A stretch of DNA of 64,000 nt from an uncultured Acidobacteriota bacterium (GCA_963723535.1 CAVRRE010000001.1:20765-84764), one strand, 5' to 3'; positions 1 through 13,733 are shown, numbered from the stretch's first letter. A program made the numbers and translations. Notes: generated by a model from the sequence alone, not told the origin.

Positions 1-800
<800 letters not shown>

Positions 801-806
801 GAGGCG

Positions 807-1393
807 TCAGGCCTCGATCAGGATGGCGCGGACGGGTGAGGCGTCGAGGTCCCGGAAGCGCAGGGGCAGGGCCACGAGCTCGTAGTCCCCGTCGGGTACG
901 ACTGCGAGGTCGAGGTCCTCGAGCAGCGCCACGCCGCGCGAGAGGAGCGCCCGGTGCGCCGGCAGATCCTCCGCGTCTTCCGGGTCGATCGAGGCGCCGT
1001 CGGTGCCGACGAGCATCGCGCCGGCCTCGGCGAGGCGGATCGCCGCCAGCGGCGAAAGGAAGGCCGGGCGCCGCTTCGGAAGAGGACACGCTGCGCGCGC
1101 AGGCTCTTCGGCGGCAGGGCGTCGGGCCCGACCTCGCCGATTCCCGGAAGCGCCACGACCCGCGCCGGCCCGAGGTAGGCCGCGAGCGGAGCCTCCGCGA
1201 TGGCCTTCCCGTCCTCGAAGAGATGGCTGGGCGCGTCCGCGTGCGTGCCGAGATGCGCGCTCATCGTGAAGCACGTCGAGCCCCAGGGAGCCCCTACGCC
1301 CAGACGAGCCGTCTCCCGCCAGGAGAACCCCACGTCCCCGGGCCACGCCGGCGTCTCCTCCGAGATCGTGCGCGAGATGTCGTAGATCTTCAC
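807..1393 (-). CDS. kynB: Cyclase family protein (kynurenine formamidase-like), one frameshift near 1080
   Basis: N-terminal half MKIYDISRTISEETPAWPGD...HLGTHADAPSH is in frame 818..1765. C-terminal half VGTDGASID...H..LL...LEDLDL..V.DGDYELVALPLR...DASPVRAIL is in frame 807..1436. The GTG start overlaps the upstream stop. Confidence 0.8.
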
Positions 1394-1845
1394 CGCATCC
1401 GCCGCACGGTCTTCTGCTCCGCGTAGCGCTCCGCAACGTGGGGATCGTAGCCCTTGTGGCGCGGATTCACCGGCACCTCGCGGTACTCGGCGTCGCACCG
1501 ATAGCAGATCGTCACGGGACGGATCCGCGAGGCGACGACCCAGTCCACGACGACCGAGACCAGCAGAACCGGCGTGAACCAGATCCAGCCGGCCTTCCAA
1601 CCCACGAGCAGCGCCACCGCCAGGGAGGCCGCCATGATCAGGCAGCCGAGCCGCTGGTCGAAATCCTTCTGGAGAAAGAACGCGCGGTTCTGGCAGTACG
1701 CGCAGATCTCGACGCCTTCGCCGCCGAGGACCCCGTCGAACGCCGCCTGGTACGCGCGGCCGCACTTCTCGCAGGCGAAGGCGCCCGATTCCCCGGCGTG
1801 CTCCTTCGCCGTCAGACAGGCCGGGCAGTAATAGCGAACCCGCAT
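1390..1845 (-). CDS. Hypothetical zinc-ribbon membrane protein
   Basis: Four CxxC pairs (CPAC, CEKC, CAYC, CYRC) flank two hydrophobic helices; ORF is operon-packed. Confidence 0.7.
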   Translation of the reverse strand: MRVRYYCPACLTAKEHAGESGAFACEKCGRAYQAAFDGVLGGEGVEICAYCQNRAFFLQKDFDQRLGCLIMAASLAVALLVGWKAGWIWFTPVLLVSVVVDWVVASRIRPVTICYRCDAEYREVPVNPRHKGYDPHVAERYAEQKTVRRMR

Positions 1846-1854
1846 CGACGCGTT

Positions 1855-2613
1855 CTAGGCCGGAAAGCCCGTGGCGACCGTCAGGTAGGAAGAGAGCAGC
1901 TCGCCGATCAGCACGAAGATGAGAGCCACGTACAGGAGGCCGGTGGCCGCCTGATTCGACTTGAGCTCGGCCGTCCGCCAGATGAAGTACGAGAGCGCGA
2001 GCGGGCCCGCAATGCCCCAGAGGACCCGGAACAGAAAGAACAGCGCGTCTCGTTCGAGGGACAGGAGAGTTTGCACGCCTTCGGTGTTGCGTTGCGCGGC
2101 CATCGCGACGGCGAGGTACACGGTCCGGAAGATCGCGAGGCCCGCAAACAGTGCCGCGCCGCGAGCCAGAAGCGCGAACGGAATCGACCGGGAAACAAGA
2201 TACCAGTGGCCGAGGTTCATGATCACGAGCACGGCGCCGAAGAAGAGCCCTCCGGCGAGCGCCCCGACCACGGTCCAGGCGTCCCCGGCCTCGCGGGGAG
2301 CTACGAGGGCGACGCGCCCCAGTGCCCAGAAGGAGCCGGCCGCTGCCGCCGCGAGAAGGGGCCGGGCCCGGCCGGCCTGGCCGGCGTGGGCGGCGAGCGT
2401 GTAGAGCACCAGTAGAGCCGTGCTGGCTGCGAGAACGGGAAGCGGCAGGCCCGGCGGCCGTACCAGCAAGGCGAGCCCCGCAAAGATCGCCGCGAGGCTC
2501 CCGTGGAGGGTAAAGAAGCCTCGCCCGAGGACACTCGGCGGAAAGAAGAGCAGCAGGAAAGCCGTGCCCGCGCAGGCTTCCAGCAGGAAGAGTCCCAGAC
2601 CCGACAGCGCCAT
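1855..2613 (-). CDS. Polytopic membrane protein (NLGHWYL motif), function unknown
   Basis: 252 aa with about 8 hydrophobic segments; the MNLGHWYL motif resembles a conserved uncharacterised family. Confidence 0.75.
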   Translation of the reverse strand: MALSGLGLFLLEACAGTAFLLLFFPPSVLGRGFFTLHGSLAAIFAGLALLVRPPGLPLPVLAASTALLVLYTLAAHAGQAGRARPLLAAAAAGSFWALGRVALVAPREAGDAWTVVGALAGGLFFGAVLVIMNLGHWYLVSRSIPFALLARGAALFAGLAIFRTVYLAVAMAAQRNTEGVQTLLSLERDALFFLFRVLWGIAGPLALSYFIWRTAELKSNQAATGLLYVALIFVLIGELLSSYLTVATGFPA

Positions 2614-2641
2614 GAGGCGCCGATTCTAACCGCTGAGCCGG

Positions 2642-3495
2642 CTACTCTTCGAACAGGTAGAAGAACGAACCGTCGTTCGTCGTGTTGTCGAGCTGGACCA
2701 CGTATGCGGAGATGTACCAGTCGGCTCGCTGGGCTTCGGCTTTGATCAGAAGCGTCGTCGTGGACGGCGGGATCGCCGCGTCATTGAAGATGTTGTTGAG
2801 CTGTGCGACTTCGTTGGCTTCGAGATCGTGGCCGATGACGCTGCTCAGAAAGAACTGCTTGAGCTGCACCCCGCTCGACCCGTCGTAGTACGTGATCCGC
2901 ACGTCGGTCGGCCGGCCCCCGCACGTCCCCTGGTTGACGATGCCGAGGTTGGCCCGCGTGTTGCCGTCGTTGCCGAGACGCGCCGTTCCGTCCCCCGCCA
3001 AGAGCGCCCGGAATCGCGTCCCGACCTCGCAGAAGCAACGGCCCTCGGTAGGCGAATCCCAGCGTCCCGCCGCCCGTCGCCGGGCTGTACGTCCTCGCGA
3101 CGGCGCCGGCCTCGACCCGGATGTCCAGCCCGTCGAACGTCACGAGCAGCGTCCCGAAGAGTCCCGAGCTCGGCGTCCGCGGGGCGGATCGCACCGGCAT
3201 TCTTGAACTCCTGGATGATGTCGTCGAAGAAGCGTACCTGCTTTGGCCCAAGCGACGGACTCACCGTCAAGGTCGCGATCTGGAACGACCCGTCCGCCGG
3301 TGAACGGTAGGAGAACTCCATCACTATCGGCGTCGTGATGGTTTCGTTGCCGTTGGTGAGCGTGATCGACGTTCGGTAGAAGGTCGCGCCCTGGATTTGC
3401 GTCACGACTGGGACGTTGCGGGTCTCGGCGGACTGGGCGACGGTCGAGAGAATGGCAGGAACGAGGGCAAGGAGGAGAACGGCACGCGGTCTCAT
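2642..3495 (-). CDS. Secreted hypothetical protein, frameshifted
   Basis: Signal peptide MRPRAVLLLALVPAILSTVAQS. Beta-rich coding-like segments are spread over frames 2845..3495, 2781..3251 and 2642..3001. Confidence 0.65.
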
Positions 3496-3507
3496 GGCAG
3501 GCTCCTT

Positions 3508-4143
3508 TCAGATCGAGCGGATGACCTCCGCGATCCGGTCGACGGAGCCTATCAAACCGTGGTCGCCGCCCGGTATCGAGACGAACCGCGAGCCCGGCGC
3601 CAGCCGACCCGACGCCTCCCACCGCTTCCAGGTTTCCTCGACGCCGGAGAAGGGGACACTCTCGTCCTCCTCGCCCATGATCGCGACGACCGTCTGAGGC
3701 GGCGGATCCCGGTCGACGCCGTTTCCGGCCATCTGGTCGAAGAACCGGCGGTGAATCTCGAGCTCCCTCCCCTGCCCGTGGTGGAAGAACCGGACCGGGT
3801 CGCCCGGCGCCAGCTTCTCGATCCAGCGCCGGCCGAAGCCAAGGGCGGGAGCCACCAGGACCAGCGGGGCCGCGAAGGCTCCCTCTCGGGCCGCCGCCAG
3901 GGCCACCAGAGCCCCCAGCGAGCTCCCGACGACGACCTGGGGCCGCTCCGCCACGGCGGCCCGAACCGCCTCGGAAACGATTGCCTCGAAATCCAGCTTT
4001 CCGAAGGAGGGCCGATTCAGGTCCGGCGCCGCCACCCGGTACCCCTCCGGCTCCAGCGCCTCCCGCAGGAGGGTGACCTTCCGCCCCGCCGGCGACGACG
4101 CGAAGCCGTGAAGATAGAGGACGGTCCGCATGCGGCGAACCAT
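3508..4143 (-). CDS. YqiA/YcfP-type alpha/beta hydrolase (esterase)
   Basis: YLHGFASSP, nucleophile motif GSSLG, and DH near the C-terminus. Confidence 0.85.
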   Translation of the reverse strand: MVRRMRTVLYLHGFASSPAGRKVTLLREALEPEGYRVAAPDLNRPSFGKLDFEAIVSEAVRAAVAERPQVVVGSSLGALVALAAAREGAFAAPLVLVAPALGFGRRWIEKLAPGDPVRFFHHGQGRELEIHRRFFDQMAGNGVDRDPPPQTVVAIMGEEDESVPFSGVEETWKRWEASGRLAPGSRFVSIPGGDHGLIGSVDRIAEVIRSI

Positions 4144-4160
4144 ACCCCCGCGAGGCAGGA

Positions 4161-4274
4161 TCAGAACATGAACGGCAGGATGCGGTCCTTAGGGTGGATG
4201 CGATCGGGATGTGGCGGGGGCGCGTGGCGCCGCTCTCTGCTGAAGAGAGAGAGCAGCCAGCGCCAGAATCTCAT
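4161..4274 (-). CDS. Unannotated 37-aa peptide MRFWRWLLSLFSRERRHAPPPHPDRIHPKDRILPFMF
   Basis: ATG at 4274 overlaps the TGA of the upstream TPR gene (ATGA). The ORF fills the gap before the hydrolase gene almost exactly. Confidence 0.6.
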   Translation of the reverse strand: MRFWRWLLSLFSRERRHAPPPHPDRIHPKDRILPFMF

Positions 4275-5741
4275 AGCTTGCCGTCTTCGCGCATGAGCTG
4301 AAGTTGCTCACGAAGCTGACGAAGCGCCTCAGGGTTAGCCTGCTGACGTTCAATGGCCTCCCGAAGAATTGATATCGCTGCGACCGCCTCTTGAGTAAGC
4401 CAGTGACTCTCGATGATTGGCAGAGCCGCGAGAACCTCGGAGACCGCCTGCCGTGAGCGGCCGGCCAACAGTAACGTTTCCGCGATCACGACGCGCAAGT
4501 AGGCGGCCAGCCCGGCCATCCCCGCGGTTTCATATGACACCGCACTAGTCACATACGCGGCTATCGAGGCCTCGAGATCGCCGTGGTCGCGTAGCAACTC
4601 CCCGGCGGCTCGCCTGCGCGAGGGCCACACCGAATGCCGACCCCGACACTTGAGCAATTCGATAGGCTTCGTTAGCCAGCCGAAGGGCTTCAGTGAATTG
4701 TCCCTGGCACCCCAAGATCTGAGCACTGTTCGAAACCGCAAGGCTTGCCAGCCCCAGGACGTCCTCAGCGCCCGCTTGCGCTCGGACCTCACTGAAGACG
4801 CAGAGCGCTCCTTCAAATTGTCGGGTCTCCTTGAGTATTAGACCCTTGAGGTACCGCGCCTTAAGGGCGTTCTCTACCATGCCGAGCTGCTCGAACTTGA
4901 ATATCAACGGGTCGATGCGGTTCAACGCTGGAGAGTAAGAACCCTCCATGTATAAGTTGGTTATGTGTCGATGATCCAGGATGGCCAACAAAGGCTCGGA
5001 CCCGCGGCACTTCGCGATGTGGGAGTCAACTCGGTCGAACCACGTCGGCAGGTTTTCCCTGTGTTGCATCCCAAGCTTGGCACCCAAGGTCAAAAGAGCG
5101 GCACTAGCTGCTAAGTAATGGACGAGTTCGCTGTCGAGACCAGCGTCGATAGCCCTCGAGTCGATCCATTCGTAGAGCGCCTCACCCTCCTGCTCACCAT
5201 CCGCGGGACGCATGTTTCGGCGGTACTCGAGGCGATCATACGCAGTGAGCAGCACACACTCGTCGGTTAGGTACCTCTCGTTCAAGTCGCGAGACCGGTT
5301 GCGCGGAGGAATCGCCATGAAGTCTCGAACGTGCTCCTGCTCGAGCGTGTGCTGGGTGCACCGACGCTGCCACACTTGGGCTGCCAGGTAATCCCCAGCA
5401 AGCCGGCACTGGTTCCAGGCAAGGAACGCCAAGCGTGCAAGCATCCAGGCCTTCTCGCCGAACTCATCGACCAAGCTGATCGTCGACACGAATTCGTAAA
5501 CATGACCAATATCGGCAAGGTACTCTCGAGACTCCGTATTCCGACCGCGGTCCAGCAGCTCAATAGCAGCATGGAGAACGTCTTCAGTGTCGTTGCCCAA
5601 TTCACCAGCAGGGTCTCTCCGCATCGACGTTCTGAGCCGTTCGACCAGATCAGCGGCCCGGCGGAAGAACTCCTCCTTGGACGGGCCGCTCGGGAGTCCG
5701 AGCTCTTCCGCATTCTCGAGCCAAGCACGGATTGCAGGCAC
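4271..5741 (-). CDS. TPR-like alpha-helical repeat protein (module 1), frameshift near 4610
   Basis: ORF 4545..5741 continues as AAGELLRDHGDLEASIAAY...EDGKL in ORF 4271..4816. TPR-like helices (ALKARYLKGLILKETRQFEGALCVF). C-terminus is clearly paralogous to 6238..6471. Confidence 0.75.
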
Positions 5742-5745
5742 GAAA

Positions 5746-6055
5746 TCAGAGGTCCGGAGAATCGTCGGCCTCCTTTCCGAGCATCTTCTCGGTCGGGCCT
5801 CCGAGCCCCCATCTCTCCGCGAGATTGGATCTCCGGATCGCCCGCCGTCGGTAGTTAATGGATAGGTGGTCCACGACCTGTATCAGCCAGGCCTTCGGGT
5901 TTCCGCTAGCCTTGAGTTTGGTCAGAGCCAGGACAAACGCGTCCTGGACGATGTCTCTCGCGTCTTCTAGTAACAGCCGATGCTTCCAGGTGGCGCGCCG
6001 CACCAGAGGCAGGTAGATCTCGGCGGTAAAAGGCCTCCAGGTCGCTGTCGGACAT
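5746..6055 (-). CDS. Small sigma-70 region-2-like protein (no region 4), frameshift near 6023
   Basis: Reconstructed MSDSDLEAFYREIYLPLVRRATWKHRLLLEDARDIVQDAFVLALTKLKASGNPKAWLIQVVDHLSINYRRR matches the ECF sigma region 2 pattern (DA.DIVQDAF...AWL......N..R). Alternative start at 6118. Confidence 0.65.
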
Positions 6056-6194
6056 CGGGCCGCGCGTCACGTCGCCAGTACCGCTGGCGGAAACGCCCCG
6101 CCTGACCCGTGTCGGCATCCCAATCCCCCTTTCTGGGGATTCAGGAGCGAGCCCTTACTTACATATTGTCACGAGCAACAGCCATAAAACAGGA

Positions 6195-6214
6195 CGACCC
6201 CCTTTCGGGGGTCG
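6195..6214 (-). terminator. Putative terminator hairpin with GAAA tetraloop downstream of the module 2 TPR gene
   Basis: Minus strand CGACCCCC-GAAA-GGGGGTCG (8 bp perfect stem) followed by TCCTGTTTT. Confidence 0.5.
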
Positions 6215-6237
6215 CAGCTGTCGAAGCGAGCGAGTGA

Positions 6238-7353
6238 CTAGCTGGCCGTTTGGAGGTACTGGCGGAGCTCAGAGAGCGCCTTGGGGTCGGTCTTCCGCTG
6301 CCTAACCGATTCCTGGAGAAGCACAACTGCGGCAAAGCCTTCAGGAACCATCTGCTGTTCGTTGATCGTAGGAAGTGCTGCCAGAAGCTCCCACTCAGCT
6401 TCACGAGGGCGCCCGGCTTCCAGTAGCGCTTCGGAAAGGACGACTCGCATGTAAGCCGCCCGCGTCTGCATCCCTAGGCTAACGAGGTCGCCAACAGACT
6501 CGCGATAGGCATCGATGGCGGCGCTACTGGCCCAGTTGGTGCAACATTTCGGCGACCAACCCCTTGAGATCCGCGAGCATTGAGTATCGCTGAGCAGCTC
6601 TCGAGCAACGGCTGGGCGGCCCTGTATGCGGCTAGAGCCTGCTCCTGGTCTCCCTCCTGCGAACGGATGTTACCGAGAGTCAACATAGCCATTCCGCGAA
6701 GGGAAGTCTCTGAAGCGAACTCCGGACCGGACAACATGCTCTGAAGGCGGGCAGCCGCCTCACCGGTCCGACCCAGCTCCTTCAGACTCATCGCTTGCAG
6801 AAGGTGGCACTTCCCCAACTCAGCGTACAACCCGAGCTTTTCGAACGTGAGAGCGACCGACGGAAGAAGCTCAAGGACATCGTTGTATCGGCCCATGTCG
6901 TAGCGAAGGCTCAGGCGAGCATACGCAACTCTGGCGAGGCTAGGCGTCGGGTTTATGGTGTGGCGGAAGCTCGCATCGGCTCTGTCGAGCCACAAATCTG
7001 TCTCGGCATTCTGACCGAGAAGTCGGCATGCGCTGCCGGCGAGAAGTGCGCTCTCGCCCAAGAAAAAGTCACGCTCGTCGAAGTATCCCAGGCTCTGCCC
7101 CTGACCGCTCACCCAAGCAAAGATTCGTCCCGCCTCAGAAAGAACGTCGGAGGGGTTCGAATTGACGCGCTCCCGGAGAAGGCCGCAGATCGCAAGGAGG
7201 ACGTCGAGATCACGATAGGAGCCTTCAGCATCGAGACCTCTGCCGTTCCTCTAAAGCTTAGCGAGGTAGCTCTTCGCGGCGAGCGACGCGTCCCCCGGGG
7301 ACCTCCTGCGAGGCCCGAACCGGGAAACGGAGGATACGGGCTTGCTCAGGCAT
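6238..7353 (-). pseudogene. TPR-like protein (module 2), paralog of 4271..5741; about 3 frameshifts and one in-frame TAG (pseudogene or assembly errors)
   Basis: Starts MPEQARILRFPV at 7353 and has TAG at 7251-7253. It continues into ORF 6474..7112, then ...DAYRESVGDLVSLGMQTRAAYMRVVLSEALLEAGRPREAEWELLAALPTINEQQMVPEGF. Confidence 0.55.
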
Positions 7354-7771
7354 CGACCTTCGGAACTCGTAAAGCTGAAGGCTGCGAGAAAAGTCGTGCG
7401 CGACGTCAGAAGGTTCCCGCTTGAGGATGCTCTCGAGCTTTGCATCGGCTGACCTCACGCCGCTATCCACGACGTAGCGCTGATACTCCCGCGCGAACTG
7501 ACAGCACGCGACAAGAAGAAAGGGACGGTTGTCTCTCGGCGAGGCGCCCGGCCGATAGCAGAAGCGGCGGAACCAAACGAAGAGATCCTTCTCGAGCTCC
7601 GTCGCTTCCTGCTCGGACATGCAGTAGTGCGAAACGAGAGCGATGTGGATGAGTCCCAAGCGTCTCTTGAAAGACGGACTCGATTTCATTTTCGAAGAGC
7701 GATTCCGCAGATTGTGCGGGCGAGTCGTCAGGTATTTCCATCTGCTGCTCCTCGAAAGTTGCAGCAATCAT
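7350..7771 (-). CDS. Small degenerate sigma region-2-like protein (module 2), frameshifted
   Basis: Joining frames 7463..7771 and 7258..7767 gives ...LGLIHIALVSHYCMSEQEATELEKDLFVWFRRF...FLLVACCQFAREYQR. It has the same position and helix pattern as 5746..6055. Confidence 0.45.
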
Positions 7772-8078
7772 AGTACTTTGTGCAGATAAAGCAATAGCCT
7801 CCTGCCCAATCGGGCAGCAGGCAACAAAGCATTACTGCTCAGCCAGTTAGATGGTGTTAGGCTGGAACGCCCAGCTCTGAGGTTAGTCAAGGTACCCACC
7901 TTTCGCCAAAAGCCCGGGCCCAATGCCCAGGCGAAAAACCTGAACCAATGGCCAGCGTGGTGACGAAGAAAAAGCCCTGCAAAATGCCAGGCTTCGCCCC
8001 TTACGCCAGCTCCAATCTCAGGATTCCCACCTTCTGGTACAGGCCGCCGCGCGGCCTGAATAAACGAATCACGTGTAT

Positions 8079-8115
8079 TTCATCACAATCAGAATCAGAG
8101 GGTGTCAAGTTTTTT
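8079..8115 (-). promoter_or_regulatory. Putative sigma70 promoter of the island
   Basis: Perfect TTGACA (8103-8108) preceded by an A-tract (UP-like); the -10 element is weak (TGATGA/GATGAA). Confidence 0.4.
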
Positions 8116-8168
8116 TGGCACCCCCCGGCCGGGAGGCGCCTGAAGGGGCCGGGAGGCCCCTACCGGCC

Positions 8169-9691
8169 CTATCCGCGCTGGAGGAGGACCCGGATCAGGC
8201 GGTCCTGGTAGGCGTGGCCGCGGCTTTCGGTGACGCGGGGGCCGTTCAGGAGGATCGCGAAGGCGTAGGTCTTGCCGGAAGGGGCCTGGGCGTAGCCGGC
8301 GAGGGTGGAAACACCGTTCAGGGTGCCCGTCTTGGCCGAAACGAGCCCGCGGCTCCGGCTGTCGTTCAGGCGGTGCCGGAGGGACCCTTCCGACTCCCCC
8401 GACACGGCCAGCGTGGACCGCCAGAGGGCCCCCTGGGGGTGGCGGTTCATCGCCCGCAGGAACTGGACGAGATCCGTGGCGGACACGCGGTTGCCCGAGG
8501 AGAGGCCGGAACCGTCGCGGAGCTCGAATCGCGCGGCCTCGAGCCCGAGCCCGCCCAGGAACTGACTCGCGAGGCTCAGCGCGCTGTCCCAGGTCCCCCG
8601 GCCCGACTTCTCGTACGCCAGCGTCTTGAAGATCTGTTCCGCGTAGAAGCTCTGGCTGCGCTTGTTCGCGATCGAGAGCGTGGGAATGATGTCCGACTCG
8701 GTCGACGCAACGAGGATCCACGCGTTGTCCGCTGGCGCCGGCCGTTCGACGACACTGCCGGTGAGCTCGATGCCGGCCGCCTTCAGGCGGCTCTTGAGCG
8801 CCGCGCCGAAAAACTTCGGCGGGTCGTCGATCGAGAGTGGGGTCGCCCAGCGGAAATAACGGTTCGGCACGGTGCCGGAGACCGTGACGAGGTCGGAACC
8901 GCTCGGACGCGACACGGCGACGCGGATCTTGCCCGTCTTGCCGACCGTGCGCGCGCGGCTGAGGCTCTGGACGATGTCGGTGTCGGGGTCGATCGTCACG
9001 TTCGCGGGAGAGCCGGGCAGCGCGCCGCGTCCGACCGAGACGACCACGACATTGTCGTTGTAGGAGAGGGCCGAAATCAGGGGCCTGGTACCAGTGCGAA
9101 TCGCGGCTCGGCGGCCAGTCGGGATGGCGGTATTCCTCGTCGAACGAGCTCGCGTTCAGGATCAAGATCGCCGGTCACCCGCAGAATCCCGGCCTGCCGC
9201 AGGCCGGCGGCCCACTTGTCGAAAATCGCGAAGACGTCGTCGTCGTAGAAGCGCCCGGAGATGTTCGGGTCCCCTCCCCCGACGACCAGGAGCGAGCCCA
9301 GGAGGTTGCCGTCGCGGATCTCGCCCCGGCGCCAGAACGTCGTGCGGAACTTGTAGGAGGGCCCCAGATAGTGGAGCGCGGCCGCCGTCGAGATCATCTT
9401 CGTGACCGAGGCGATCGTCTCGCGCGTCGAGGCGTCCTTCTCGAAGATGGTCTCGCCGGTCTCCAGATCGGCCACCGCGATCGACACGCCGCCCTTCCTG
9501 GCGGGCGGCCGCAGAGCGGCCTGCTCGAGCGCGGCCTTCAGCGAGGACGGCTGCGCGACGGTGGTCGTGTTCGTCGAGCGGCCGCGGGATTGGGTCGTCG
9601 AAGCCGCGAACAGGCCCGGCGGAGCGAGAAGGAAGGCGGCGAGAAGAGCCGCGACCGGGGTGTGCCAGCGAACGGCTCTCGTCACCCGCAA
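8169..9691 (-). CDS. dacB: D-alanyl-D-alanine carboxypeptidase/endopeptidase (PBP4), frameshift near 9080
   Basis: ASVTK (SxxK), LLVVGGGDPNI, SQSFYAEQ, DGSGLS and KTGTL motifs. Confidence 0.9.
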
Positions 9692-9705
9692 ATTATAATC
9701 GAGCG

Positions 9706-12100
9706 TTGCGCTTTGACGAAGAATCCCGCGCCTTCGAGATCTCCGTACGCGAGCTCGCGGAAGACGAAGGGTTCCGCCGCGTCGGGTTCGACCGCGGCGA
9801 CGGCTGGAGGCGCCTCGGTCTGGGGTCCCAGATCCACGCCCGCGTCCTCGGCGAGAGACAGAACGCCTTCCCCGCCTACCGGTGCGAGGTCCACCTGGAG
9901 GCCCGCATCCCGGTCGAGGACTGGACGGCCGTTCTCACGGGCCGGCTGGATGGCTGCATCGAGCGTGAGCCGGGTCACTGGCTGATCGAGGAGCTCAAGT
10001 CGACGAACCTCTCCGTCGACGGCGTCCGCCCCTCCGGCTACGCCTTCGAGCGGGACCGCCGCCAGCTCCTCGGGTACTGCTACCTCTGGAAGCGCCTCGG
10101 CCACCTCCGGGTCACGGGCGCTCTGGTCTATATCGACATCGAGACGGGCGAGGAGCTCTCCCTCCAGGTGCCCTACGAGGAGGACACCGAGCGCGAGGTC
10201 GAGAGGCGCCTCGCCCGTGCGCTCGGCATCTGGCGCGCCGAAAAGGTCGTCCGGACTCCGAAAGGCCAGGGCGGCCGAACGGCTCCCCTTCCCTCACACG
10301 GCTCCCCGACCGGTCCAGGAAAAGATCATCGAGGCCGTCCGGACCGCGGTGCGCAACGGCGAGAACCTGCTGGCCGAGGCCCCCACCGGCTCCGGCAAGA
10401 CGGCCGCGGCGCTTCACCCGGCCCTGGCCGAGGGGCTTTCCTCGGGGCGCCAGGTCGTCTTCCTGACCTCGAAGACTCTCCAGCAGAAGATGGCCGTCTC
10501 CTCGCTCGTGGCCATGAACGAGCGGGCGTTTCACACCGTGCAGGTCCGCGCCAAGGATCGGATGTGCGCCAACGACCGCATCATCTGCCACGAGGACTTC
10601 TGCCGGTTCGCCAACCGGTACCCGGAGAAGATGGAGCGCTCGAACCTTCTCGGGCGTCTCCGGGACAGCTACTCGCACTTCGACCCGGACACCGTCTTCG
10701 AGGAGGCGCGGCGCGAAGAGGTCTGCCCGTTCGAGGTGCAGCTCGAGCTGGCCGGGCGAGCCGACGCGATCGTCGCCGACTACAACTACGTTTTCGAGCC
10801 CGCCGCCGCCCTCCGCCATCTGACCGGCGAGGACCTCCGCGAGGTGGTCCTCCTGATCGACGAGGCCCACAACCTGCCCGACCGCGCGCGCCAGATCTTT
10901 TCGCCGGAGATCCTCTCCGAAGACCTCGCGGCGCTCCGCAACCGGCTGGCGCTGCAGCCGGGCGAGCTCTTCGCCGACATCCTCGTCGCGGTCGAGGCCC
11001 TCGACGGGATTCTCGAGAGCGTGGCCGAGGAGCTGCCGGAGGGCGAGGCGATCGCCGAGATCGAGCCCCCGAGAGACGCGATCCTCGAGCTCCGGGCGGC
11101 CTGGGAGTCCAGCCTGATGCGCTACCTCGCGTGGAAACGCGAGACCCGCCTCGCGCTCGTCGACGATCCCGTCCTCGATTTCCACTTCACGCTGCAGCGC
11201 TTCGCCGCGGTCCTCTCGATGTACGGGCCGGACTTCACGGCCGTCGTCGAGCGGCGTTCGACCGGCGTCCGCTTGGCGCTGGTCTGCCTCGATCCGGCGC
11301 GCTCCCTGGCGCCGATCTTCCGGCAGGTCTCCTCGACCGTGCTTCTCTCGGCGACCTTGAACCCCCCCGAGGCGATCCGCCGCGTCCTGGGCCTCGAGTC
11401 CGAGCGGACCTCCGCGATCGCTCTGCCGCCGCCCTTCCCGCCCGAGAACCGGAAGGTCATGATCGTCCCGTCGGTCCGGACGACGTATACGGCCCGCGAA
11501 CGCAACTACGGCCGGATCGCGACGCTGCTCGCCGAGATGTCCGACGCCCACGGCGGCAACGACCTCGTCCTCTTTCCCTCGTACCGCTTCCTGACGGCCG
11601 TCGCCCAGCGGATGCCCGAAACGCGCTCGCGCCTGCTCGTGCAGCGTTCCGACCTGACCGCCTTCGAGCGGCAGCAGCTTCTCGAGGCGCTCGAATCGCC
11701 TCCGCCGGGCGGCACGCTCCTCTTCGCGGTCTCCGGCGGAATGTACGCCGAAGGGGTCGACTATCCGGGAGACCTGCTCTCGGCGGTCTTCGTGGTCTCC
11801 CCGGCGCTCCCCCAGGTCTCCTTCGAACGCGAGTTGCTCCGACGGTACTTCGAGGAAAACGAAGAGGCGGGCTTCGACTACGCCTACCTGCAGCCCGGGA
11901 TGACCCGCGTCGTCCAGGCGGCGGGCCGGCTCATCCGAAGCGAGCACGACCGCGGCGTGATCGCGCTTCTCTGCGCGCGTTTTCTCGAGGAGCCCTACGC
12001 CAGCCGGCTGCCCCGCGACTGGTATGAGGAAAGCCCGAGCGAGCTCGTGACGCGGAAGCCGGCCGACGAGATCCGCGAGTTCTTCGCCAGGTACGCATGA
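9706..12100 (+). CDS. PD-(D/E)xK nuclease fused to a DinG/XPD-family Fe-S helicase, frameshift near 10260
   Basis: N-terminal GRLDG...IEELKS nuclease motif; APTGSGKT, Cys cluster (MC...IC...FC...CPFE), IDEAHN, SATL and QAAGRLIRSEHDRG. Confidence 0.88.
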
Positions 12101-12543
12101 CCAACCCCTACACGAAGAAGCGCATGCCCCGGGTGACCGTCGATTCGTGGGTGCGCGACCGCAAGGGGCGCGTCCTGCTCGTCCAGCGCGCGCGGCCTCC
12201 GTTCGAAGGTCGCTGGGGCCTCCCCGGGGGGTTCTGCGAGTGGAAGGAGACGACCGAGGCCTGCTGCGCCCGTGAGACCCGCGAGGAGACGGGCCTGCGG
12301 GTGAAAGTCGGCGAGCTTCTGGGCGTCTACTCGAAGTCCGATCGCGATCCGCGCGGCCACAACGTCACCGTGCTCTATCGTTGCCGCCCGAGCTCGGGCC
12401 GCCTCGTCGGCGGCGACGATGCGGCCGACGCCCGCTGGTTCACGCCAAGGGAGATCGCGAAGCTCCGCTTCGCCTTCGACCACCGCCAGATCGTGATGGA
12501 GCAGCTCGCCTCCGATCGGCGGCGGCGCCGCCGGCGCGGCTGA
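12097..12543 (+). CDS. NUDIX hydrolase
   Basis: Nudix box GGFCEWKETTEACCARETREETG; RDPRGH motif. Confidence 0.9.
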   Translation: MTNPYTKKRMPRVTVDSWVRDRKGRVLLVQRARPPFEGRWGLPGGFCEWKETTEACCARETREETGLRVKVGELLGVYSKSDRDPRGHNVTVLYRCRPSSGRLVGGDDAADARWFTPREIAKLRFAFDHRQIVMEQLASDRRRRRRRG

Positions 12544-12558
12544 CGTTCGCCGCCGCCG

Positions 12559-13650
12559 TCAGTCCCGACGCGCCCGCGTCGCCTCGATCCGGCCCGTCTC
12601 GAGACTTGCCGAAAAGGCGCGCGTCAGGAGTCCCTCGTCCGTCACCGCCCATACGGTGTACCGGTAGAACGTCTCCGCCGCGGCGGAGGTGTCGACGAAG
12701 GCATACCCGAAGGCCTCGGACGAAGACTCGGAGGACGGCACGACCTCGGGGCCGGCGCGCAGGATCCGCCCGTCGGGCGAGACCTCTTCGCGAAAGATGG
12801 CCCACCCGCGGAGCCCCGCATGCGACGCCGTGGACCAGATCAGCCGGGGCCCGCTCGTCGCCGCCTCGGCGCGAGCCTCGAGCCGCCAGAACGGCGCGCC
12901 GGACTCCCGCGTGCATTCGACCGGCGCTTTCAGCTCGCGCGTGCCCATCTCGCTCCCCGCGACGAGGAAGTCGATGCGCGACACCCCGGCGAGCGGAATC
13001 GTGCGCCGGTCGCCGGCCGCGAAGAACACGACGTCGGGCGGCAGACCCGCGTCGTCGTAACGCACGACCGCCGCGCCGTCCCCGCCGTCCGGCGGCCAGG
13101 CGAGCCGGAGCGCTTCGGTCTCGCCCTCGGGCAGAAAGGACCGGTGCCGGACCGACATCGGGGCGGGAGGAGCCGCGTCGAGGGCACCCGCCTCGAGGTC
13201 GAAGAGCCTCAGGCGCGAGGGCGAGGCCTCCGCCCAGAGGGTCGCGTAGAGTCGAGCCGCCGCGCGAAGCAGCGCCCGGCCGTCGTTCCGCGCCGCATCC
13301 GCGACGAGTCGCGACAGCGCCCGCCGGGGCGTCTCGCCCACGCTCGCGGCCTCCTCCGCCGCCCGGCGTTTCAGACCGGATTCACCGGAACCCAGAACGA
13401 CCTCCTGGACCCAGAGCCGGCCGAGCTCGCGCGGATGCGCCCGAAAGTCGAGAAGCGCCGCCGCCGCGAGCGTTTCGAGGGCCGACGTCTCGCCGGCCGC
13501 TTCGAGCCGGCCCAGATAGGCGCCGACGGCCTCTTCCATGAAGGCGCTGTCCGGAGCCGGCGCGGGACTCGCGGCTGCCGCATGCGAACCGGGCACCGCC
13601 GCCAGGAGCATCCCGGCGAGGAGGAGGCCGGACGACCGGTTTCGGAGCAT
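12559..13650 (-). CDS. Secreted hypothetical protein
   Basis: Signal-peptide-like start MLRNRSSGLLLAGMLLAAVPGSHA; long ORF with coding-like composition. Confidence 0.6.
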   Translation of the reverse strand: MLRNRSSGLLLAGMLLAAVPGSHAAAASPAPAPDSAFMEEAVGAYLGRLEAAGETSALETLAAAALLDFRAHPRELGRLWVQEVVLGSGESGLKRRAAEEAASVGETPRRALSRLVADAARNDGRALLRAAARLYATLWAEASPSRLRLFDLEAGALDAAPPAPMSVRHRSFLPEGETEALRLAWPPDGGDGAAVVRYDDAGLPPDVVFFAAGDRRTIPLAGVSRIDFLVAGSEMGTRELKAPVECTRESGAPFWRLEARAEAATSGPRLIWSTASHAGLRGWAIFREEVSPDGRILRAGPEVVPSSESSSEAFGYAFVDTSAAAETFYRYTVWAVTDEGLLTRAFSASLETGRIEATRARRD

Positions 13651-13733
13651 CTTGTGAGGGTAGCCGCCCGCACGCGGGCCCGTCAACTCGTTTACGGAAG
13701 TCGGGCTCCGGACGTCGCCTCTCCGAGGCGCCT

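Follow-up and report, generated by a model that had tools for sequence, protein, structure and literature searches.

A conserved small open reading frame overlapping the end of a TPR gene in uncultured Acidobacteriota is predicted to encode a peptide partner of a sigma-region-2/TPR operon

Peptide signaling in Bacillota is underlain by pairs of genes that encode a TPR receptor and its cognate peptide, and the literature describes such pairs only there. The Phr peptides are made as products of 38–57 aa from genes that lie immediately 3' of rap, overlap its 3' end and are co-transcribed with it. The SHPs of the Rgg-SHP systems are ~22–35 aa in length, mostly hydrophobic, exported by PptAB and cut by Eep. 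TPR domains are also known to read free C-termini, as in Hop with EEVD-COOH and PEX5 with SKL-COOH, and SigO-RsoA of Bacillus subtilis provides a case of a stand-alone sigma region 2 protein that needs a second protein to work. In PlcR-PapR, the active form of PapR is the C-terminal heptapeptide ADLPFEF (PMC2441798, PMC6568020). RRNPP systems have been described only in Bacillota (Firmicutes) and their mobile elements (PMC10075063, PMC9765709), and our literature search for RRNPP systems in Acidobacteria returned nothing relevant. Here, we describe a well-supported micropeptide gene in an uncultured soil Acidobacteriota, which appears to be coupled to the gene of a TPR protein; this TPR protein is in turn paired with a fragment of a sigma factor.

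The window, by which we mean the whole stretch of 64,000 nt that was analyzed, comes from a genome with a G+C content of 69%. The features of the locus, all on the minus strand, are as follows.

3508–4131, minus strand: UPF0227/YqiA-type alpha/beta hydrolase gene, a neighbor outside the module
4161–4274, minus strand: 37-codon peptide gene (coordinates with the stop included), encoding MRFWRWLLSLFSRERRHAPPPHPDRIHPKDRILPFMF followed by TGA
4271–4274, minus strand: ATGA start/stop overlap of TPR1 and the peptide, in the context ctATGAgat
4271–4816, minus strand: TPR1 3' fragment, with genuine coding sequence from ~4610 to 4271, ending in ...QLQLMREDGKL and stop
4545–5741, minus strand: TPR1 5' fragment, 398 aa, ended by a frameshift
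5746–6118, minus strand: sigma-70 region-2-only mini-protein gene (Pfam Sigma70_r2), first cistron of the operon
6156–6174, minus strand: 19-nt element TCGTGACAATATGTAAGTA, upstream of the operon
6194–6215, minus strand: terminator-like hairpin separating the upstream TPR2 module from the operon

The predicted order of the operon is the sigma-2 mini-protein gene, then TPR1 (~500 aa), then the peptide as the last cistron. The sigma-2 mini-protein is ~120 aa in length, 55–80% identical across loci and always encoded directly upstream of TPR1, and the Shine-Dalgarno (SD) sequence and ATG of its gene at 6118 are conserved. The element TCGTGACAATATGTAAGTA, which is probably the promoter or operator of the module, lies ~45 nt before this SD and ATG. 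It was nearly invariant in 22 loci whose flanks otherwise cannot be aligned, and was unique in the source genome apart from its duplicate (see below). No terminator-like hairpin was found between TPR1 and the peptide gene. As a separate observation, two sites with four mismatches to the element, on contigs 4 and 9, likewise precede an SD and ATG. The tandem module upstream of the operon (6474–7771, minus strand) consists of a degenerate sigma-2-like mini-protein gene with no Pfam match and TPR2 (~390 aa); it ends with TAA and the hairpin and has no coupled peptide. Its counterpart in locus L096 is at 6988–8564, with a similar hairpin after TPR2. On contig 12, a third TPR paralogue shares this degenerate sigma-2-like segment and is likewise without the peptide, and no peptide paralogue was found next to either TPR2 or this third gene.

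The hydrolase gene downstream of the peptide probably starts at the ATG at 4131, not at 4143. A −10-like hexamer, TATGGT, is located at 4144–4139 (minus strand), 7 nt before that start, and TAT(G/C)(G/T)T was present 7 nt before the GTG or ATG of the hydrolase in nearly all loci of the genus, with or without the peptide. The hexamer looks like a promoter for a leaderless mRNA. In distant Thermoanaerobaculia the hydrolase gene directly follows exonuclease III, with neither TPR nor peptide. The conserved neighbors are the sigma-2 protein, the TPR proteins, the hydrolase and proteins without a family match; the module as a whole had no PADLOC match.

A sequence-only reading of the window had placed an ORF at 4161–4274 with its ATG overlapping the TPR1 stop as ATGA, and we found it exactly so: the ATG at 4274–4272 overlaps the TGA at 4273–4271 that ends the 3' part of the TPR1 gene. 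The peptide of the window begins with MRFWRWLLSLF, continues as a Pro/Arg linker and ends in KDRILPFMF-COOH, and 17 nt separate its stop from the first ATG of the hydrolase gene. The compositional features ascribed to it are present in the sequence, including a near-repeat (HPDRI/HPKDRI) that is common, beyond the window copy, only to its two closest relatives, L016 and L050. The peptide had no Pfam match, and the ORF is only partly unannotated, since the exact peptide and two orthologues are present in a public protein collection as unnamed or "hypothetical" singletons. Across the three codon positions, the G+C content of the ORF is 0.60/0.49/0.81. On its own, the ORF is no more than would be expected by chance in DNA of 69% G+C; the first 9 kb of the window has 95 ORFs of at least 30 aa. 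Openness was discarded as coding evidence because the remaining five frames of the peptide segment were open in 8–17 of 23 loci.

To obtain orthologous loci, the window TPR1 was used as a query, read through its frameshift. Full-length orthologues (30–43% identical) were found in the same genus, and 16 genomes from other genera in the order had none; an ORF of 33–39 codons was present at the same place in 11 of the 12 loci found with TPR1. Anchoring on the conserved hydrolase (~70% identical) gathered 80 named loci from uncultured Acidobacteriota of the class Thermoanaerobaculia. In 23 loci, the window included, the gap between TPR1 and the hydrolase gene is filled by an intact ORF of 33–39 codons; in all, we count orthologues of the peptide in ~24 loci. 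Four further copies (L017, L022, L026 and L039) were recognizable but frameshifted, all of them in "MFD" assemblies, which we take to be long-read MAGs prone to homopolymer errors. The copy in L018 has an internal TAG, and G212/L133 has a divergent copy with the end VPFLS.

Comparison of these loci revealed how the peptide is likely started and ended. Its start is an NTG whose TG forms the first two bases of the TPR1 stop, and in 22 intact overlapping copies the start codon was ATG (nine), GTG (10), CTG (two) or TTG (one), the TTG copy being that of L022 with its frameshifted peptide frame. The N of this NTGA is the wobble base of the last TPR1 codon, and ATG or GTG was present in 19 of the 22 copies, compared to an expected A+G share of 0.47 at such TPR1 positions. 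Pairing of the 17 nt upstream of the start with the anti-SD had a median energy of −7.7 kcal/mol, against −3.1 kcal/mol for a background of random positions in TPR1 (Mann-Whitney p = 1.8e-9). This SD-like signal arises from the codons for the conserved ...(E/G)(E/G)G.. end of TPR1, and the window copy has the weakest of all copies (−2.8 kcal/mol). Two loci from sister genomes, L023 and L033 (G006 and G023), were observed to have a CTGA overlap with a normal SD and no alternative in-frame start; these copies are either initiated or re-initiated at the rare CTG, or silenced. At the other end of the ORF, the stop directly follows the final hydrophobic residue in every copy, with TGA, TAA and TAG all in use.

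Within the ORF, several synonymous codons are used at the conserved Leu, Pro and Phe positions. The dN/dS of the peptide was 0.12 between the window and L016, 0.17 between the window and L050, and 0.20, 0.22 and 0.36 in the remaining diverged pairs (five pairs in all). The conservation that the sequence-only reading had proposed to look for in homologous loci is therefore seen, as the ORF is kept with synonymous-biased variation. The substitution pattern indicates that it is the amino-acid sequence of the peptide that is under purifying selection, and a search of window positions 3400–8200 gave no Rfam match. On the basis of these comparisons, we regard the ORF as almost certainly a real protein-coding small gene. 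Two other interpretations of the segment were tried and rejected. For a TPR1-peptide fusion made by programmed frameshift there was no conserved slippery sequence, and in-frame stops occur 1–5 codons 5' of the start in L024, L025 and L044. For the C-terminal peptide codons as a −35 box of the hydrolase gene, the distance to the −10-like element was found to vary.

The comparisons suggest that the peptide is translated from the NTG overlapping the TPR1 stop, aided by the SD-like sequence, and since both this start and the SD lie in the last TPR1 codons, the peptide would be made together with TPR1. Co-transcription, coupled translation and a strict linkage of the peptide with TPR1 are all indicated by the arrangement of the loci. 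The coupling to TPR1 that had been proposed for the window is therefore supported across orthologous loci, but is broken in the window as assembled. This is because TPR1 is split in this assembly by a single-base frameshift in a G/C run near 4601–4615, and ribosomes from the TPR1 start would halt at 4545. The sigma-2 mini-protein gene is likewise frameshifted in this assembly, near 6015–6030. The frameshifts in these two genes suggest homopolymer sequencing errors, not pseudogenes, as the orthologues are intact (463–519 aa for TPR1) and frameshifted peptide ORFs elsewhere were observed only in "MFD" assemblies.

A second copy of the peptide was found by tblastn 15 kb away in the same contig. 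It falls within a 17-kb stretch of the contig end that is duplicated in inverted orientation (C1:1–16973 versus C1:17340–34458; 83.8% identity, 2363 mismatches, 436 gap columns and a 366-nt spacer). Window positions 1–13694 correspond to C1:20765–34458, and the partner, C1:1–16973, lies outside the window. The duplication has patches of 97–99% identity, among them the TPR1/peptide segment. In the duplicate a 1-nt deletion kills the peptide frame after RERRH and TPR1 is full of stop codons, the other arm having many in-frame stops. Since the second copy is frameshifted and belongs to the duplication, it was not counted as independent support. The duplication could be an assembly fold-back, a two-strain chimera, or a real palindrome with gene conversion.

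The distribution of the peptide is narrow. A family HMM matched the 4-Mb source genome only at the 4161–4274 site and its duplicate. Among 401 genomes of the class, scores of 33–54 bits were obtained only in this genus (12 of its 24 sampled genomes), and matches outside the genus were partial and at noise level. The peptide was found only where a TPR1 orthologue was found, and genomes with only TPR paralogues have none. It is dispensable, as several TPR1-bearing genomes have lost the ORF or let it decay (G017/L019, L034, L021/L042 and G226/L134). In other genera, the sigma-2/TPR pairs terminate in TAA or TAG next to a convergent gene and are without the peptide, as in these two loci.

L040 (DASUAD010000148.1), 370–2161: sigma-2-only and TPR pair, away from the hydrolase, without a downstream peptide ORF
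L043 (JBHENW010000200.1), 481–2185: sigma-2-only and TPR pair, away from the hydrolase, without a downstream peptide ORF

Because other genera carry sigma-2/TPR pairs without it, the peptide would be an accessory modulator specific to this genus, outside the core of the module. The comparison of loci thus points to a gene that is new as a family, restricted to one genus of Thermoanaerobaculia, and that appears to be a genus-specific addition to an older two-gene module, in which it belongs to TPR1. We note that the peptide looks like a recent gene, possibly one born de novo in the spacer between TPR1 and the hydrolase gene.

The peptides of the family share both of their ends. The N-terminus has the consensus M-[RKST]-[LFI]-W-[RL]-x-L..., followed by an Arg-rich stretch, then a linker that varies in length and contains poly-proline in about half of the copies. 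The C-terminal consensus is [K/R/H][K/R/H]-[D/E]-x-[ILV]-[LV]-P-F-x-F-COOH, so that the acidic residue and following hydrophobic C-terminal block remarked on in the window copy are conserved across the family. Net charge ranges from +4 to +9. The longest uncharged runs have 5–13 residues, those of at least 10 being poly-Pro, and beyond poly-Pro no uncharged run was long enough for a signal peptide or membrane segment, as judged by a heuristic based on charge and the length of uncharged runs. An amphipathic N-terminal helix was also considered but not supported, as the hydrophobic moment was not significant compared to shuffled controls (mean z 0.76). The product is a very basic peptide of 33–39 residues that is probably disordered.

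The partner protein, TPR1, is predicted to have a fold suited to peptide binding. An AF2 model of the closest intact TPR1 orthologue (L050, 53.6% identical) had a pLDDT of 86.8 and a pTM of 0.81, and forms a single all-alpha solenoid of ~25 helices. In Foldseek the model matched generic TPR superhelices (APC subunits, LGN and OGT); the phage phi3T Rap bound to its pheromone was seventh (TM 0.57–0.60 on the target) and the anti-sigma factor DdvA 10th. A PDB profile search with TPR1 gave RapJ (4.7e-6) and NprR (8e-6) amid generic TPR matches. The Rap and NprR matches were no better than those to APC subunits, LGN and OGT, with TM-scores of 0.3–0.6. TPR1 may have a Rap-type helical bundle, and no HTH or sigma-4 domain was found in the first ~155 residues of five orthologues at E-values up to 10. 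Based on the model, TPR1 is a plausible peptide-binding scaffold, with generic TPR proteins ranking as high among its matches as RRNPP ones. Between the window and L050 the peptide is 84% identical and TPR1 53.6%, which fits a defined binding role for the peptide. Between the window and L016 (CAWAKL010000001.1) the TPR1 body is 33% identical, its last 45 residues 73%, the peptide 81% and the hydrolase 83%. With both L016 and L050 the conservation is mosaic, and TPR1 probably contains a recombination breakpoint.

We lean toward the peptide being a binding partner of TPR1. The wider hypothesis, in which the last cistron of the operon makes a peptide that binds TPR1 and so modulates the output of the sigma-2 protein, seems to us evenly balanced. 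In it, the C-terminal block of the peptide, with its free carboxylate, would dock in the concave groove of TPR1; docking would alter how TPR1 affects the region-2-only sigma-like protein that is its partner, and this in turn would change transcription. That the conserved motif ends exactly at the stop codon suggests that TPR1 recognizes a free carboxy-terminus. We place the docking in the groove because of this position of the motif, because TPR domains read C-termini, and by analogy with Rap-Phr and PlcR-PapR. The output of TPR1 is itself something we infer, as TPR1 has no HTH or sigma-4 domain of its own. Through translational coupling, the peptide and TPR1 would be made in about equal amounts. 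We favor a role within the producing cell, as opposed to one as a secreted signal, on the basis of the missing export signal, the coupled synthesis and an N-terminus that is conserved in sequence.

Several other explanations have to be set against binding to TPR1 within the cell. The peptide might be secreted, processed and re-imported as a pheromone in RRNPP-like quorum sensing, with its C-terminal 6–9 residues as the signal for cytoplasmic TPR1. In favor of this, the genes are arranged and overlap as in rap-phr, the hydrophobic block conserved at the C-terminus is similar to the LPFEF of PapR (PMC2441798), the dibasic-acidic motif that directly precedes this block might serve for processing, the middle region is as variable as a pro-region would be, and the C-terminal variants follow clades. 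However, we consider a pheromone unlikely: the peptide, with a charge of +4 to +9, carries neither a Sec, Tat or lipoprotein signal nor a hydrophobic h-region, the conserved neighborhood was found to contain no gene for an exporter, a protease or Opp, and W4 and L7 show an N-terminus conserved in sequence and not in character alone. The LPFxF core is also almost invariant across the genus, which leaves little signal specificity, and no RRNPP systems have been described outside Bacillota and their mobile elements (PMC10075063, PMC9765709). The likeness to SHP pheromones drawn in the sequence-only reading proved weak, as the peptide is strongly cationic, lacks an export signal and has no Rgg-type HTH receptor. 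That reading had also allowed for a membrane-active peptide or a RiPP-like precursor, neither of which fared well. A membrane-active, antimicrobial, toxin-like or proline-rich ribosome-targeting peptide for which TPR1 provided a chaperone or an immunity partner would account for the Trp and Arg-rich N-terminus, the Pro and Arg-rich linker, the high charge and the fast evolution of both TPR1 and the peptide. Such a role is very unlikely given that there is no hydrophobic run of at least 10 residues beyond poly-Pro, that the hydrophobic moment was not significantly above shuffled controls, that there were no PADLOC or Pfam matches, and that the peptide has no export route and shares its operon with a sigma-like regulator. 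The short precursor-like ORF, with its conserved C-terminal core and variable leader-like region, is also what a RiPP precursor modified by a dedicated enzyme would look like, but searches of eight to ten flanking genes with Pfam and NCBIfam revealed neither a transporter nor any maturase, whether radical-SAM, YcaO, lanthipeptide or other, making this the least probable of the explanations.

Another pair of explanations dispenses with the product altogether. If translation of the ORF, and not the peptide, controlled the downstream hydrolase, as a cis-acting leader, arrest peptide or coupling device, its position 17–29 nt upstream of the hydrolase start, the hairpin overlapping that start, the poly-proline runs in many copies (EF-P-dependent stall sites) and a length of 33–39 residues, close to that of the ribosomal exit tunnel, would all be understandable. 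Yet the hydrolase has its own conserved −10-like hexamer 7 nt 5' of its start whether or not the peptide is there, relatives without TPR1 have the hydrolase without any such ORF, the spacing from peptide stop to hydrolase varies from about 0 to 28 nt, poly-Pro is missing from about half of the family, and both termini are conserved as amino acids with a low dN/dS. We therefore give this control by translation little credence. There remains the case in which there is no gene, and the frame is open by chance or the conservation lies in the DNA or RNA, as a promoter or RNA structure. Open frames of similar size are everywhere in G+C-rich DNA and the second copy on this contig carries a frameshift, but the enrichment of SD and start codons, the fixed stop position with three different stop codons, the synonymous variation at a dN/dS of 0.12–0.36, the lack of an Rfam match and the variable distance of the C-terminal motif from the hydrolase −10-like element render it exceedingly improbable, and by these comparisons it appears to be largely refuted already.

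Should the peptide bind TPR1, it would represent a novel family of small proteins and a new type of input into the control of transcription, as part of a candidate peptide-TPR-sigma circuit; no such circuit is known in this phylum. It would also supply the "sigma-2-only plus TPR" modules of Thermoanaerobaculia, so far orphans, with a concrete ligand. A more far-reaching version, that Acidobacteriota, which are diderm, use a cassette like Rap-Phr or PlcR-PapR with a split, region-2-only sigma factor as its output in place of an HTH or a phosphatase, and sense the peptide or an LPFxF fragment of it between cells, we consider distinctly doubtful; if true, peptide quorum sensing would be wired directly to RNA polymerase. 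The analysis also indicates that genes of 30–40 codons in high-G+C metagenome-assembled genomes can feasibly be validated by comparison alone.

Of the described systems, those with TPR domains that read free C-termini, Hop and PEX5, are eukaryotic and their motifs are unrelated to the LPFxF tail. The likeness to SigO-RsoA concerns the operon context and not the peptide; no sigma-4 partner was found here, and the partner of the region 2 protein is instead a TPR protein with the peptide. Rgg-SHP is similar in the acidic residue before a hydrophobic C-terminal segment and in the lack of a classical signal peptide, but the Rgg receptor has an HTH, which TPR1 does not, and the peptide described here is Arg-rich with ~6 hydrophobic C-terminal residues. 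In PlcR-PapR of the Bacillus cereus group, as here, a small protein with a hydrophobic and aromatic C-terminal core is encoded just 3' of a TPR receptor, and the PapR7 sequence ADLPFEF can be set beside the motif [D/E]x[ILV][LV]PFxF, a resemblance in LPF that may be convergent or accidental. PlcR differs in its N-terminal HTH, and PapR is exported through Sec and trimmed, whereas the peptide here is without an export signal.

Rap-Phr resembles this locus in having a TPR protein with no DNA-binding domain and a transcription-related partner, and in the short co-directional ORF that adjoins the TPR gene and overlaps its 3' end. The active region of Phr is in its C-terminal part, and it is the C-terminal block that is conserved here. 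RapJ and the phage phi3T Rap were among the sequence and fold matches of TPR1, although they ranked no higher than generic TPR proteins. Phr has a Sec signal peptide, extracellular processing and Opp re-import, in contrast to the highly cationic peptide without a signal described here; the partner of Rap is a response regulator and not a sigma region-2-only protein; and the host belongs to the phylum Acidobacteriota, class Thermoanaerobaculia, whereas RRNPP systems were described in Bacillota. Overall, Rap-Phr and PlcR-PapR appear to be closer analogies to this locus than the SHPs.
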